The notes beneath the pieces are model-generated. The model was not told the DNA's origin, searched no databases, and saw nothing but the letters and a program-made list of their open reading frames with translations. A stretch of DNA of 64,000 nucleotides. Origin: a virus (taxonomy: Duplodnaviria; Caudoviricetes). Where the stretch lies: IMG/VR virus record IMGVR_UViG_3300024331_000207, positions 1 through 64,000 of that record; one strand, 5' to 3'. The position numbers and the translations under genes are program-made. Below are positions 1-52,044 of this stretch, piece after piece. How positions within the stretch are numbered: the first letter of the stretch is position 1; every line of letters starts with the position of its first letter.

Positions 1-309
1 CGGGGAGGGCTTGGGTCGTCGGCCGGGGCGGGCTAGGTTCGGTGCGGTCGGGAAAGTCGGCGAGGCTAGGACTGGGATGGTCTGGCGAGTCGGCGGGGAA
101 CGGGTTGGCTCGGCATGGGACGTCGGCAGGGGCTGGGACGGAGTGGGGCGGCTTGGGTCGTCGGTGTGGGCCGGGCGGGTTCGGAATGGTGCGTCGGCAC
201 GGACAGGGTCGGGGCGGAGCGGGGAGGCTAGGCCAGGCCAGTCGGCAGGGGTTGGAAAGGAACGGGACGGGGTGGGGTGGCATGTCGTAGCCGTCTTGGT
301 ACCGGCGTC
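1..309 (-). repeat. GTC-delimited GGNNN pentamer array A (7 complete units plus a partial unit cut by the window edge) with terminal hairpin; putative C-rich ncRNA
   Basis: + strand parses without exception as (GGNNN)6-9 GTC: 21-55, 59-88, 92-121, 125-159, 163-192, 196-240, 244-283, then GTC GTA GCCG-loop-CGGC GTC. Strand inferred from TATAGT on - at 317-322. Confidence 0.9.
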
Positions 310-344
310 GGTGTCCACTATACGTCACCGGCGGAAGGTGAGAC

Positions 345-782
345 ATGGCTACTGATTACCTGGACTCCTGGACCTCGGACTGGGAATCCCGCAGCGACCC
401 GGAGCTGCTGCCGCAAGCCTGGCGGCTGCGCGAGCAGGGCTGGTCGCACACCGAAATCGCCGGTCAGCTCGGGATCACCGTTGCGCAGGCCTACCAGCTG
501 ACTGCGGTGCGGAAGAAGTACGAACGGACCCCCGACTCGGATGCCACCATCGGGCACCTGGCGACGACCGTGGTCTTCAACCTCTCCCACGCTGACTCGC
601 ACGTCGATAAAGCCATGGCGAGCCAGGGTGCCACGCGGCAGTTCAACTTGGAACATGCGCAGAAGCACCTCAAGGAGGCTGTTTCGCACATGGACCACTT
701 GTGTCAGGTCCTCGGGGACACCTACCCGAAGATCGGCAAGGAGTACGACGACATCGCGAACGACCTGGCACCTCTTGAGTGA
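345..782 (+). CDS. hypothetical protein with N-terminal helix-turn-helix
   Basis: AWRLREQGWSHTEIAGQLGITVAQAY is HTH-like; AAGGTG upstream; high GC3. Confidence 0.6.
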   Translation: MATDYLDSWTSDWESRSDPELLPQAWRLREQGWSHTEIAGQLGITVAQAYQLTAVRKKYERTPDSDATIGHLATTVVFNLSHADSHVDKAMASQGATRQFNLEHAQKHLKEAVSHMDHLCQVLGDTYPKIGKEYDDIANDLAPLE

Positions 783-1338
783 GCTGCCGCGGCCGGCGCG
801 CATCGCGGTCGCGGTCGACGCCACCAATGACCTGGCTGCCGCCTGCATCATCGTCAGCGGCATCCTGCCCGACGGCCGCATCCTGGTCGAGCGGGCCGTG
901 GACCCGAAGGGCCGGCAGGACCACCGGGCGGGGATCGCCTGGGTGGTGCCGCGGCTGAAGGAACTCAAGCTCCGCCAGCGGGTTGCCGCCGTCATCATCG
1001 ACCCGGCCTCCCCGGCGGGGTCGCTGCTGGTCGAGGCCGAGCGGGCCGGGCTGCCGCTGCAGCTGCCCGCCAGCCGCGAGATAGGCCAGGCCTTCGGGCA
1101 GTTCCTCGCGTGGGTGGCGGAGAAGAGGCTGCTGCATCTCGGCGAGGAGAACCCGGACCTGCGGCGGGCCGTGGCCATCGCGGTGTGCAGGGACATCGGG
1201 GACGGGCAGCGGGCCTGGAGCCGCCGCCACTCGCCGGGAGACATCACGCCGCTGTGCGCTGCGACGCTTGCCGCATGGGGGGCGCACAAGTTCGCGCGGC
1301 CGCTGGACCTGACCAAGACGGTTGTCGGCCCCACTTAA
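775..1338 (+). CDS. terL: terminase large subunit C-terminal (RNase H-like nuclease) domain as a separate ORF
   Basis: IAVAVD..., VIIDPASPAGSLL, LLHLG, AWSRR...DITPLCAATLAAWG resemble actinophage TerL C-termini; upstream of portal; TTG start overlaps the previous stop. Confidence 0.7.
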   Translation: MSELPRPARIAVAVDATNDLAAACIIVSGILPDGRILVERAVDPKGRQDHRAGIAWVVPRLKELKLRQRVAAVIIDPASPAGSLLVEAERAGLPLQLPASREIGQAFGQFLAWVAEKRLLHLGEENPDLRRAVAIAVCRDIGDGQRAWSRRHSPGDITPLCAATLAAWGAHKFARPLDLTKTVVGPT

Positions 1339-5306: not shown

Positions 5307-5375
5307 GGTGGGGCTGGGGCCGGGGCGGGACGGAGTGGCTTGGGGTGGGAAGTCATATCCGGAAGACCCGGAGTC
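5307..5375 (-). repeat. solo GGNNN pentamer unit B with terminal hairpin
   Basis: 9 pentamers (5307-5351), GTC ATA TCCGG-aagac-CCGGA GTC; TAAATT on - at 5382-5387. Confidence 0.8.
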
Positions 5376-5482
5376 ACCCTTAATTTACACCAACTACGTG
5401 GGACTGGAAGCCCCAGTCCCCGCCTCCCGCCCTGCGGGCCGAGGCAAAAGAAAACAGCACAGTCCGCAGGAAAGGAAAAGCA

Positions 5483-26121: not shown

Positions 26122-26470
26122 CTGGGACATCCCGGTGACTGACGAGTACCTGCGCCAGGTCTCGCTCGCCGTGGTTTATGAGCTGGCCCCGCGGGTCGAC
26201 GCGGTGGCCACCGCGCTGGCGCCGGTGCTGACCCGGCACACCCCGGTGCCGAGGTACGTCAAGCGCCGGAGCCACGGGCACGGCGGCCACCTGAAGGCGT
26301 CAGTGCACTGGGCGTGGAGCGAGGACTCCGACGGCATTTACGCCGACATCCTCTCGTTGTGGTACGGCCGCTTCCTGGACCCGAAGGCCGAGCAATTGCA
26401 CTATAAACGTCCCTTCCTCCCGACAGCGTTGTACGCCGTTTGCCAGGGACGGGTCCTGTATTTGGGCTAG
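26105..26470 (+). CDS. HK97 gp10-like neck/tail protein
   Basis: GHLKASV, YGRFL, RPFLPTAL. Confidence 0.6.
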   Translation: MTVQVDWDIPVTDEYLRQVSLAVVYELAPRVDAVATALAPVLTRHTPVPRYVKRRSHGHGGHLKASVHWAWSEDSDGIYADILSLWYGRFLDPKAEQLHYKRPFLPTALYAVCQGRVLYLG

Positions 26471-26548
26471 GGCAGGCTCGTCGGCTTGGGCAGGGTGGGG
26501 AGGGCTGGGTTCGGAGCGGTTTGTCGTAGCCGTCCTATTACCGGCGTC
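26465..26548 (-). repeat. GGNNN pentamer array C (3+8 pentamers, GTC-delimited) with terminal hairpin
   Basis: pentamers 26465-26479 and 26483-26522, then GTC GTA GCCG-tcctattac-CGGC GTC; TACTGT on - at 26555-26560. Confidence 0.85.
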
Positions 26549-26588
26549 AGTTCAACAGTATCCATTCACCGCCATAGGAGCCGCAACC

Positions 26589-42614: not shown

Positions 42615-42731
42615 GGTCAGGGGCGGTCGGGGAAGGCACGTCGGCGCGGGCAGGGTGGGGCCGGGAAGGCTCGGGCCGGGCAGGGGCGGGTAGTCGGGAC
42701 GGCGTGGTTTGGCTAGCCATCTACAGGCGTC
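42615..42731 (-). repeat. GGNNN pentamer array D (5+10+4 pentamers, GTC-delimited) with terminal hairpin
   Basis: 42615-42639, 42643-42692, 42696-42715, then GCC-atctaca-GGC GTC; TACACT on - at 42738-42743. Confidence 0.85.
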
Positions 42732-42769
42732 GCAGCCAGTGTAGCGCTGAGTGCACCAGGGGAATTAGG

Positions 42770-42802: not shown

Positions 42803-42873
42803 TGGTGTCAGCGGGAGTTGAACCCGCAACCTACGGCTTAACCGGCCGTCGCGCTGCCCAATTGCGCTATGAC
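42803..42873 (-). tRNA. degenerate tRNA-like gene (GTT anticodon, 4-bp acceptor stem, ACCA end)
   Basis: GTCA TA GCGC AATTGGGCA GCGC G ACGGC CGGTTAA GCCGT AGGTT GCGGG TTCAACT CCCGC TGAC ACCA. Confidence 0.6.
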
Positions 42874-42881
42874 GATTGGTT

Positions 42882-49450: not shown

Positions 49451-50440
49451 TCATGACAACAGGGTAATGGTGACGGACGGTTTACCGTACTTAATAGGCG
49501 GCTCCGCGCCGGCCCGCGCGTAATCCTCTTCCACCTGCTTGCGGTCCAGCGAGCTGCGCCCCCTGGTCATCGTGATCCGCGCGGTCATCACGCCGGCCGT
49601 GACCTCCTGGCTCTCGCCCGGCCTGGTGACGGTGCGCAGCGCGTCCAGCGCGCCCTTCGCCTCCTCCTCCAGCGCCTCCGCGGCGGCCTTCGCCTCGCGG
49701 GCCGCGGCGAGCTGCTTCAGCCACCGCTCCGCGTCGGGGTCCTCCAAGTACAACACCGTCCGCGGGTCGCGCTCGGGCACGCCCCGCCCCCAGCACTCGG
49801 AAAAGAAAGGGCAGTTGCGGCAGTACGCGGAGTCGGGGCTGTAGTCCCGCGGCAGCGACTGCAGCGGCCCGCGCTTGACAGCCTCGACCCAGGCCAGGGC
49901 ATCCCGGACGTGCTGGAGCTTGAAGTCGTCCTCCCAGACGACCTCCTCGCCGTTCGACCGATCCAGGTAATTCAGCCGGATTCGCCTGACCTGGTGACCG
50001 CGGACAGTGAGCGCGGCGGCGTACAGGGAGCATTGCCAGACGTGCCGCGCGGGCGGTCCCTCGCGGCGAACCTTGTCGAGCTGGACGGCATAAGCAGTGG
50101 TCTTGAGGTCGACCACCAGTCCATCGTGGAACAGGTCCGGGTGACCGAGGAGGCCGGCGAAGGAAACCGCATCTTCGATGATCGCACTGTCGCCCAGGAC
50201 GGCACGCGCTGCATCAGCGAACACCAGGTGGATGGCCGTACCCATGACTGCGGGCGTGCTGCTGAGCTGTGCCGCGGGGAAGCCGGCAAGGCGGTAGCCG
50301 GCCTGACGGCGGCAACCGCCGATTTCACTCATGCCGAGTTCGCGCTGCTGGCTCCTGGGACGCGATGCGTCCCAGGAGCCTAGCAATTGAGTAGCGGTAG
50401 GTGTATCCATGAAGCACATCATGGACCGGGGGTCTGACAT
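49451..50440 (-). CDS. Cas4/RecB-like PD-(D/E)XK exonuclease
   Basis: SEIGGCRR, GTAIH, GHPD...DLKT, QCSLY, CRNCPF...C (four Cys); start 50440 or 50410. Confidence 0.85.
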   Translation of the reverse strand: MSDPRSMMCFMDTPTATQLLGSWDASRPRSQQRELGMSEIGGCRRQAGYRLAGFPAAQLSSTPAVMGTAIHLVFADAARAVLGDSAIIEDAVSFAGLLGHPDLFHDGLVVDLKTTAYAVQLDKVRREGPPARHVWQCSLYAAALTVRGHQVRRIRLNYLDRSNGEEVVWEDDFKLQHVRDALAWVEAVKRGPLQSLPRDYSPDSAYCRNCPFFSECWGRGVPERDPRTVLYLEDPDAERWLKQLAAAREAKAAAEALEEEAKGALDALRTVTRPGESQEVTAGVMTARITMTRGRSSLDRKQVEEDYARAGAEPPIKYGKPSVTITLLS

Positions 50441-50870
50441 TCCAGTCCCGCCACACCGCGCCACGCCCTGCGGAGCCGCTGCCTTGCCCGCCAGGCCGAA
50501 CCTATCCTGCCGCCCCTGCCGATGCGCCCCTTCCCTTGCCGACGCCATGCGCGCCTGTCCGCTGCTGCCGATGCTGGCCTGTCCGAACGACCCCTGTGCC
50601 TGCCGCGCCGGACCTATCCGCCCCTGCCAAGCCACGCCGCGCCCAGCCATGCCGGGCCGGTCCCGTCCTCACCTGACCACGCCTGCCAGGCCTTGCCTTG
50701 CCGAACCCCGCCCCTGCAGGCCTTGCCGCGCCTGGCCTCACCTGACCTTGCCTGCCGATCCGCGCCTAGCCCGTCCCTGCCGTGCCAAGCCCTTCCCAGC
50801 CGAGCCGTGCCTAGCCAACCCTGCCATGCCGAGCCTTGCCTGGCCGGACCCTGCCTATCCGTGTCCATCC
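50441..50870 (-). ncRNA. GGNNN pentamer array, GGCA-delimited; putative guide-RNA array
   Basis: - strand units of 7, 13, 13, 11 and 4 pentamers each closed by GGCA, then a degenerate tail; co-oriented with the RAMP-like gene. Confidence 0.85.
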
Positions 50871-50887: not shown

Positions 50888-51367
50888 TCACTCGCCAGAT
50901 GCCGCTGCGTCCTGTTCACCCATCATGCTTCGCAGCGCGGCCCAGAATTCGGGCAGCGCCTGGTACCGTGCCCGGAGTGCGGCTATCTCTCTCGCCATCC
51001 GGCTGAGGAGGATGCGCCGCTCCAGGTCGGTTATCGATTCGGCCGCGACGTACGTGCCTGGCGGCACCGTCCGGCCGACGTTGCGGCCCGCCTGGTACTC
51101 GCGCAGCAGGTACTGGCGCACCTCGCCGTCGGCAGCCTCCTCCAGGACCTTGAGCCGGCAGCTGCGGATGAGCGCCGTCGCCTGCGCGAACCTGTACCGT
51201 TCGGCAGCCTCGGCGTCGTTCCAGGTGAACCGGTCATGCAACGGGCTCCCGTCCGGCCGGGCCGCCTCAAGAACCGCGAACGCTGACACATTACCGCCCT
51301 CGTCCGCAAGCTGCCGGATCTCCCGGCGGACGGGATCGTCAGGCTGGATGACCCTGATCACGGTCAC
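50888..51367 (-). CDS. partner protein of the RAMP-like gene
   Basis: GTGA overlap with upstream stop; VLEAAR..SPLHDRFTWND.EAAERYR..QA..LIR. Confidence 0.8.
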   Translation of the reverse strand: MTVIRVIQPDDPVRREIRQLADEGGNVSAFAVLEAARPDGSPLHDRFTWNDAEAAERYRFAQATALIRSCRLKVLEEAADGEVRQYLLREYQAGRNVGRTVPPGTYVAAESITDLERRILLSRMAREIAALRARYQALPEFWAALRSMMGEQDAAASGE

Positions 51368-52044
51368 AGCGTGACCTTGGTGATTTTGGCGTCCGCTGGC
51401 ACCGTGAAGGTGCCGTAGCTGCCAGTCTTGGATTCCTTGGAGCCGGGGCGCCACTCGCCGAGGCCGCTCAGTCCGGCCGCGTCGACCAGCGCGACGATGG
51501 TGTCGCTCTTATACAGGGCCGACGGGTAGGTGACGCTGAGGACCGCGCTCCACGGGGAATACTGCGGCCGGAAGCGGATGTCGGCTACGCCTGACTCGTT
51601 CCTGGCGTAATCCTGCCGCATCGTCGGCTCGGCGGGCTTGAGTGTCGCAGGGTCACCCGTCCACTCGCCGTAGATCGGCACCAGGAGATCGCCGTCCTCA
51701 CCGCCTTCGCCGTGCACGAAGATCGTCCGCTTGAGTGACTCCATGGTCAGCTTCTGTCCGGGGAAAAACCGCGCGGCGTCAACGACCGCGCCCTTGAATG
51801 CGACAGCCGGCATCCCGGAGCGACCGTCGGCGAAGAGGTGCATGGCTCCGCGGAACATCTCCTCGGGGTTCTTGTGCTCGCGCTGGACGACTTCGCCCAT
51901 CTGCTTTGCCAGCATCTGCGCCTGGGCCTTGGCGCTGAATTTGTTAACGATCAGGGGGGTGAGTCCCTGGATCGGAATGCTGAGCGTTGCACGCCCGATG
52001 CGCTGCAGGGTGATCTGCGGCGGCTGCTGGGCACGTGGTGGCAT
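51364..52044 (-). CDS. RAMP/Cas7-like RNA-binding protein (Vipr-like)
   Basis: IQGLTPLIV first strand, GMPAVAFKGAV (cf. IPGSSLKGA), C-terminal Gly loop AGLSGLGEWRP...GSYGTF; GGAGG RBS. Confidence 0.75.
   Translation of the reverse strand: MPPRAQQPPQITLQRIGRATLSIPIQGLTPLIVNKFSAKAQAQMLAKQMGEVVQREHKNPEEMFRGAMHLFADGRSGMPAVAFKGAVVDAARFFPGQKLTMESLKRTIFVHGEGGEDGDLLVPIYGEWTGDPATLKPAEPTMRQDYARNESGVADIRFRPQYSPWSAVLSVTYPSALYKSDTIVALVDAAGLSGLGEWRPGSKESKTGSYGTFTVPADAKITKVTL

Follow-up and report, generated by a model that had tools for sequence, protein, structure and literature searches.

What does a stretch of phage DNA specify in which GG recurs every five nucleotides, the three bases after it are free, and only the triplet GTC punctuates the series? 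Such a tract occupies the left edge of the window, that is, the 64 kb of DNA analyzed here, which form the first part of a 97.6-kb IMG/VR contig from a soil metagenome (70% G+C; CheckV completeness 84%). We propose that this tract, array A, is very probably a multi-unit guide-RNA (vrRNA) array of the phage's second VIPR system, with the protein Vipr-B as its cognate partner. The assignment is based upon the shared grammar, the presence of two Vipr genes, a common end module and the co-occurrence of such arrays with Vipr-B.

VIPR is a CRISPR-like, RNA-guided DNA silencer of phages, and its Vipr protein is a minimal stand-alone RAMP (bioRxiv 10.64898/2026.04.26.720920, 10.64898/2026.04.26.720927). 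According to the same two preprints, the vrRNA consists of 5-nt tandem repeats with a conserved GGY and a variable NN and has a conserved structured end; one protomer is bound per repeat, and the NN positions pair with double-stranded DNA, every third target base being skipped. Repeats of the form NNNGG, staggered arrays, ribozyme-interspersed arrays and several architectures are among the variants described there (10.64898/2026.04.26.720920, 10.64898/2026.04.26.720927). Dispersed solo vrRNAs in phage genomes are recognized through their common tail (10.64898/2026.10.15.759431). The published Vipr filament has six subunits per turn. VIPR is thought to be ancestral to CRISPR; in-depth characterization covers only the enterobacterial type II, types III and V having been approached only by small-RNA sequencing. 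The kind of system is thus already known from the 2026 preprints. Beyond what could be found described are the GTC-punctuated multi-unit architecture, an unrelated Vipr-B, the presence of two systems in one phage and a likely polarity in which the C-rich strand carries a 5' handle.

Structure of array A

The features at the left end of the window are as follows.

1..286, GG-rich on the + strand: part of array A within the window, from the GGNNN parse; continues leftwards in assembly L031
284..309: end module of array A, GTCG-TAGCCG-loop-CGGCGTC, a small hairpin (handle or tail)
317..322, - strand: -10-like TATAGT, 7 nt ahead of GACGCC and placed to start a C-rich transcript via the hairpin into the array

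A greedy parse of the + strand resolved positions 3-286 into GGNNN pentamers without exception; the units comprise 3 (truncated at the edge), 7, 6, 6, 7, 6, 9 and 8 of them, and each unit is closed by GTC (at 18, 56, 89, 122, 160, 193, 241 and 284). The seven complete units hold 49 pentamers and no two are alike; GG is fixed in 49/49 of these and in 91/91 parsed pentamers of the whole 14-unit array, while all four bases occur at positions 3-5. In the window GTC(GGNNN)6GTC was counted four times, the expectation from 100 dinucleotide-preserving shuffles being 0.00. On the - strand the same tract reads GAC followed by (NNNCC)n, and this C-rich strand is 57% C and 19% G. A pyrimidine stands at the third pentamer position in 47% of cases (43/91), G being the commonest base there, as against 77% (27/35) in the array near 50 kb (Fisher p = 0.003). 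The initial annotation had described seven complete, mutually different units of GGNNN pentamers (49 in all) punctuated by GTC, and had pointed to a delimiter and a free third position that set the tract apart from the 50-kb array; the parse, the shuffles and the pyrimidine counts bear out both statements.

That the tract is a slippage microsatellite, an assembly artefact or coding sequence is extremely improbable. In a microsatellite one would not expect every unit to differ while GG stays invariant in 49/49 pentamers. An artefact is at odds with the recovery of the identical sequence in independent assemblies from several samples, and with the same grammar, spelled with other letters, in dozens of contigs. 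Coding would be favored by the C-rich strand, which is without stop codons and offers open frames; a 5-nt period in units of 5k+3 nt could not maintain a reading frame. A CRISPR array was rejected as well, for there are no identical direct repeats of about 24-40 nt between spacers, the only constants being GG every 5 nt and GTC.

Extent of the array and the split terminase gene

Longer assemblies of the phage (L031, L044 and L066), including a 113-kb ENA contig, were retrieved through an identical 145-aa protein encoded at 345-782 of the window. They extend the phage 28.3 kb to the left of window position 1, and since this extension matches nothing in the 97.6-kb record, the genome must be at least 126 kb long. 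No close DNA relatives were found among GenBank phages; the portal protein has at most 30% identity, to that of cluster J mycobacteriophages.

The array had been said to run off the left edge of the window. In the longer assembly (L031:9443-9656; 113-kb assembly of the same phage) it indeed continues for about 200 nt, up to the stop codon of the upstream gene. The full array A (L031:9443-9942) comprises 14 units of 4, 8, 8, 7, 4, 4, 7, 7, 6, 6, 7, 6, 9 and 8 pentamers. It lies within the gene for the large terminase, the parts of which are given below.

L031:8453-9454, directly left of array A: large terminase, N-terminal part, 333 aa (phrog_9 positions 56-470, E = 4e-49)
345..782, + strand: gene for a 145-aa HTH protein, which together with array A separates the terminase parts
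775..1338, + strand: large terminase, C-terminal nuclease part, 187 aa (phrog_9 positions 481-667)

The two halves are about 1.3 kb apart, the gap being made up of array A and the HTH gene. In the relative L017 the terminase is a single 574-aa ORF and the array is placed after it.

Over array A the DNA contigs, from several samples and independent assemblies, are identical except for a deletion variant. In this variant window positions 35-268 (234 nt, about six units) are missing and a GGCT 4-mer is left at the joint; it is present in three independent assemblies made by different pipelines (L032, L036 and L037). Guide arrays can thus gain or lose units in natural populations.

Two Cas7-like Vipr proteins

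The array near 50 kb belongs, with vipr-A, to the first VIPR system of this phage.

50460..50863, - strand: staggered-type array of the first VIPR system, built of GGY/NN pentamers in which GGCA shifts the register
50888..51367, - strand: 159-aa gene, translationally coupled to vipr-A (phrog_15946)
51364..52044, - strand: vipr-A, a 226-aa Cas7-like Vipr protein with the G-loop GVGEWRP

The Vipr-A family profile matches the SUSP1 Vipr chain of PDB 36pp (E = 3.4e-6) over a span that includes the thumb arginine and GVG(D/E)WRP, and a structural model of the protein (pLDDT 91.7) matches Csm3/Cas7 with a probability of 1.00. It is encoded once in the 97.6-kb record, and its array is G-rich on the strand of its own vipr gene. 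The coupled 159-aa gene is a candidate accessory (vap) gene of this system. Directly downstream of the array, at 49451-50440 on the - strand, lies a gene for a Cas4-like PD-(D/E)XK nuclease with a C-terminal cysteine cluster, which could be a nuclease-type accessory gene of the Vipr-A system or merely a recombination gene.

Vipr-B emerged from a search for a protein common to phage genomes with GTC-type arrays. Its gene and array in this phage are located in the left extension.

L066:16140-16865, about 23.3 kb left of window position 1: vipr-B (P0141), 241 aa
L066:16929-17468: main GTC-type array, 540 nt, starting 64 nt after vipr-B behind a terminator

The 113-kb contig of this phage encodes P0141 without any difference at L066:16140-16865. 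A structural model of the protein (pLDDT 87.2) matches Cas7 of types VII and III (Cas7/Csm3) with E about 1e-6 (6e-7), and there is a weak RAMP motif match to Csm5. Comparison of the Vipr-A and Vipr-B profiles by hhalign gave a probability of 0.3% over 19 C-terminal columns, and revealed no detectable sequence kinship. The Vipr-B profile had no Vipr match in the PDB, and no VIPR structure was among the fold matches in a PDB library running up to 2026-04-08. The protein has neither the D/E-W-R motif of the G-loop nor sequence similarity to the SUSP1 Vipr, and it is by its modeled fold and by genomic association that we would count it among the Vipr proteins. A 213-aa gene (L066:15498-16139) abuts the start of vipr-B, a position that it keeps in the three closest relatives only; no known family was matched by its product, a candidate accessory protein of the second system.

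These findings bear on the proposal that the tract represents a second subtype whose cognate gene may lie just left of position 1. Extension of the contig to the left did reveal a second RAMP-like gene, accompanied by an array of the GTC type with an end module that matches in 25/26 bases, which upholds the first part. The second does not stand: the direct neighbor of array A is the N-terminal part of the terminase, the 19 kb directly left of the window hold no Vipr gene, and vipr-B is reached only after 23 kb. A single soil phage has a pair of Vipr proteins that are unrelated to each other, and the array grammar differs between them.

Dispersed arrays and their common end module

Three further GTC-type arrays were located in the window.

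5307..5387, GG on the + strand: solo array B, between the prohead protease and major capsid genes; 9 pentamers at 5307-5351
5355-5375: end module of array B, TATCCGG-loop-CCGGAGTC
5382-5387, - strand: -10-like TAAATT of array B
26465..26560, GG on the + strand: solo array C, upstream of the tail chaperone and tape-measure genes; 8 pentamers at 26483-26522
26523-26548: end module of array C
26555-26560, - strand: -10-like TACTGT of array C
42615..42743, GG on the + strand: solo array D; one unit of 5, one of 10 and another 4 pentamers, pentamer grammar at 42615-42692
42714-42731: end module of array D, TAGCC-loop-GGCGTC
42738-42743, - strand: -10-like TACACT of array D

Each of the five GTC-type arrays in this phage has at one end the module TA(G/T)CC-loop-GG(C/A)GTC, which is also present in relatives. 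Those of the main array (GTCGCAGCCGTCTTGGTACCGGCGTC) and of window positions 284-309 (GTCGTAGCCGTCTTGGTACCGGCGTC) are identical in 25/26 bases. In 11 tails the outer pair of the hairpin covaries between G:C and T:A, with zero mismatched combinations. The arrays matched no Rfam family and contain no CRISPR-type repeat; the sole Rfam match is a tRNA-Asn. This tRNA gene (GTT anticodon; 42803-42876, - strand) adjoins array D.

In all likelihood arrays A-D are dispersed "solo" copies of the Vipr-B array type with a common end module. Guides of one system would then be scattered through the structural operon, one of them splitting the terminase gene. Arrays A-D might instead be orphans or decoys aimed at the Vipr-B of a rival phage or prophage, a protein that they would load onto, redirect or titrate. 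Solo vrRNAs that redirect the VIPR system of another element have been described (10.64898/2026.10.15.759431), the four arrays are distant from vipr-B, and the 234-nt deletion inside array A is tolerated in nature. However, the phage has its own Vipr-B with an adjoining array, the end module of which is nearly identical (25/26), so that use by the phage itself is the simpler explanation, and we regard a decoy function as quite improbable.

The grammar in other genomes

The search pattern (GGNNN)6 GTC (GGNNN)6, which contains the grammar only, located 19 loci in IMG/VR and 11 in prokaryotic genomes. Among the latter several are actinobacterial, namely Streptosporangium, Micromonospora, Streptomyces and Kineosporiaceae. 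Some of the IMG/VR arrays exceed 1 kb, and one 90-kb contig has up to nine array regions. The commonest unit has six pentamers, a length that the search pattern itself favors. Across these loci the letters all differ, while the phase of GG and the GTC punctuation are kept. At least 14 records found through the grammar alone have a Vipr-B homolog beside the array, and in ten whole virus records with GTC arrays no homolog of Vipr-A was found (0/10).

The association with a Cas7-like gene also bears on the idea that the tract specifies no guide RNA and is a periodic platform, either as a C-rich Rho sponge, a binding site for a TRAP-like ring protein or a set of small-terminase sites, or else a G-quadruplex tract. 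The composition of the C-rich strand (57% C, 19% G) does resemble the C>G bubble of a rut site, array A is located between terminase genes, and (GGNNN)n sequences are able to form two-tetrad quadruplexes. Against this, rut sites have no strict spacing, units of 6-9 pentamers are not multiples of four, arrays B-D are at sites unconnected with packaging, and the grammar occurs beside a Cas7-like gene in many unrelated contigs. Moreover, what defines VIPR RNAs is a period of 5 nt in which one dinucleotide never varies. A platform of this sort is very improbable. The Rho sponge was dropped because rut sites lack fixed spacing and the VIPR link accounts for the period. T7-type primase GTC sites, Chi- or KOPS-like motifs, cos or terminase sites, G-quadruplex arrays and pentapeptide coding were likewise set aside in view of the Cas7-like association.

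Which strand is the guide

Published vrRNAs would lead one to read the G-rich strand. The orientation of arrays relative to their vipr genes was compared between the two families. With the Vipr-B profile 79 loci were collected from IMG/VR; a strict array detector saw arrays in 26 of these and none in 53. The C-rich strand runs with vipr-B in 23 of the 26 array-bearing loci, the array being either upstream or downstream of the gene, and the G-rich strand is co-oriented in the remaining 3/26, all in the subclade that includes this phage. As a control, 80 viral contigs with Vipr-A were examined, among which 60 have arrays within 4 kb (up to 1.6 kb). Here the G-rich strand is that of the gene in 60/60, as the published biology of VIPR predicts, and the Vipr-A loci therefore serve as an orientation control for the strand assignment. 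The difference in strand bias has a Fisher p = 5e-18, the loci being phylogenetically non-independent. Gene order over about 140 loci with Vipr homologs, 86 with a detectable array, thus offers a simple test of the guide strand, which for Vipr-B points to a CC-anchored RNA with a 5' handle.

The spacing of the neighboring genes leads in the same direction. In seven loci with the array upstream of vipr-B, the C-rich tract stops no more than tens of bases from the Shine-Dalgarno sequence; in six further loci it begins at the stop codon of the preceding gene or at most tens of bases past it. The hexamer TANNNT, taken as a possible -10 box, is missing on either strand from the last 45 nt before vipr-B in 4/7 loci (L012, L013, L014 and G004), with L013 and L014 having one each farther upstream, inside the array. 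Within the 200 nt scanned, L003, G005 and G006 each have one or more such hexamers, which lie about 30 nt or less from the vipr-B start codon. Where the gap before vipr-B is empty, the C-rich RNA must be transcribed at least as the leader of the vipr-B mRNA.

In the subclade of this phage TANNNT is located on the C-rich strand 5-7 nt ahead of GAC GCC in 11 tails, always with the same letters at the three key -10 positions and with varying letters between them. A scan for two-hexamer sigma-70 promoters of the E. coli consensus type found no promoter at the proposed -10 boxes. A bidirectional intrinsic terminator abuts the far end of the main array. In L017 the array between the terminase and portal genes is inverted relative to array A and antisense to the operon, an inversion that is to be expected if the array is a self-contained cassette.

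From gene order we consider it likely that the strand transcribed in the Vipr-B family is the C-rich one. The RNA predicted on this basis is 5'-GAC-GCC..hairpin..GGC-UAC-[GAC-(NNNCC)n]x, which mirrors the GGY/NN vrRNA known from publications and its 3' tail. We further lean towards the view that a mirror-image grammar is general in the Vipr-B family, comprising a C-rich precursor with a 5' hairpin handle, guides of the form GAC-(NNNCC)4-9 and a CC anchor. If this grammar is true, the strand from which the published "NNNGG" class was read would be the wrong one, and VIPR proteins would have evolved at least two anchor specificities and two cap polarities (5' handle versus 3' tail).

The same array of the second system may also be read conventionally, with the G-rich strand as a vrRNA of (GGNNN)n units punctuated by GUC, the hairpin as its 3' tail, and arrays A-C processed from the transcript of the late operon. 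Published vrRNAs do consist of GG-anchored repeats followed by an invariant structured 3' tail, like the G-rich strand here; that strand is co-directional with vipr-B in this phage and its three closest relatives, and arrays A-C are in the sense orientation within the late operon. GUC is the classic cleavage triplet of hammerhead ribozymes, and arrays interspersed with ribozymes have been described. TANNNT would then belong to the 3' tail, and the orientation bias would amount to systematic antisense placement. Several observations make this reading unlikely. The G-rich strand is antisense to vipr-B in 23/26 loci, against 60/60 the opposite way in the Vipr-A control. Arrays are often found between co-directional genes with gaps of only tens of bases, from which TANNNT is absent in the last 45 nt in 4/7 loci. 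The main array begins 10 nt past the terminator, which leaves no space for a promoter on the G-rich strand, and the terminase-portal array of L017 is antisense to its operon. Finally, only 3 nt separate the units, so that there is no ribozyme between them, nor was one matched in Rfam.

Relation to described systems

The system shares with the type II VIPR of Escherichia phage SUSP1 and a Pseudomonas fulva prophage (10.64898/2026.04.26.720920; structures given in 10.64898/2026.04.26.720927) its location on a phage, a small stand-alone Cas7-like RAMP, and non-coding tracts of 5-nt repeats with an invariant dinucleotide and hypervariable bases, a structured cap at one end and several arrays per genome. 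It differs from type II in that the third position extends beyond pyrimidines (NNNGG type) and that units of 4-9 repeats are joined by a 3-nt GTC/GAC, whereas the characterized vrRNAs have 9-16 repeats. There is one cap per GTC array here and one tail per vrRNA there; gene order further suggests that here the C-rich complement is the RNA and the hairpin is 5'.

The staggered VIPR arrays (fig. S18 of 10.64898/2026.04.26.720920; 50460-50863 in this phage) also have guides arranged head-to-tail without tails of their own, and a register shift marks the unit boundary. In the staggered type the shift is -1 (a GGCA 4-mer with a 1-nt overlap) and GGY is kept, whereas in the GTC type 3 nt are inserted (+3) and the third base is free. 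The two types are paired with two unrelated Vipr families in this one phage. Arrays A-D fit the pattern of the solo (orphan) vrRNAs known from phages of the SUSP1 family and from F5 satellites (10.64898/2026.10.15.759431), which are far from any vipr gene and are assigned by their end module; here, by contrast, the cognate Vipr is in the same genome, and the hosts are of the actinobacterial type from high-GC soil rather than Enterobacteriaceae. Compared with the crRNA/Cas7 backbone of class 1 CRISPR systems, a RAMP polymer at a fixed nucleotide step, a hairpin handle as cap and a multi-unit precursor are common to both. VIPR differs in its step of 5 nt instead of 6 and in its non-contiguous code, and it has neither adaptation genes nor identical repeats between spacers.

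Proposed mechanism and search for targets

If Vipr-B behaves like the Vipr of the solved type II complex, its protomers would polymerize along the repeats, one to each pentamer. Each protomer would grip the fixed dinucleotide and leave the variable bases accessible, so that these could pair in a gapped manner with double-stranded DNA, presumably that of a competing phage or mobile element, which would thereby be silenced. GTC on the G-rich strand, or GAC on the C-rich one, resets the register every 4-9 pentamers, from which would result either short guides processed one by one or short filaments apart from each other. Should this second system, with its likely CC-anchored RNA, be confirmed, the known recognition code would become wider and a second, orthogonal scaffold for programmable DNA binding would be at hand.

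A gapped target search had been recommended in the initial annotation, and it produced no target. In the phage's own 107 kb no unit did better than shuffled units under nine reading rules, and in about 0.7 Mb of related contigs five rules gave no excess over shuffled units. IMG/VR was scanned with four exact gapped patterns, a procedure of little power given exact matching and 12-18 informative bases per unit. The 13-repeat unit of the 50-kb array had 0 matches. The 9-repeat unit of array A had two, in contigs of 51-56% GC, and the one whose frame was read is out of the wobble register. For the 10-repeat unit of array D there were 0 and 1 matches under two rules, the latter outside the likely coding frame. 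All these matches are compatible with chance.

The composition of the guides is of interest in this connection. The variable positions of the arrays are 55-57% G+C in a genome of 70% G+C. In their dinucleotide usage they agree with codon positions 1-2 much more closely than with positions 2-3 or 3-1. Guides directed against coding DNA with the wobble base skipped would be expected to show such a composition and such a fit to codon positions.

Other features of the genome

The left extension (L044, L066) contains several genes for glycosyltransferases, and further genes for a radical SAM enzyme and an NAD-dependent epimerase. A GH18 chitinase-like gene, a ParB-like gene and two DUF397 genes are also present there. 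At the right end of the record, outside the window, G000:C1:96950-97652 is non-coding and contains three copies of GTTAGCCTTGCTAACGA, several ACATAACGGACA-like repeats and, in this genome of 70% G+C, the AT-rich palindrome TTTTCGAAAA. This region may be an origin or a packaging region.
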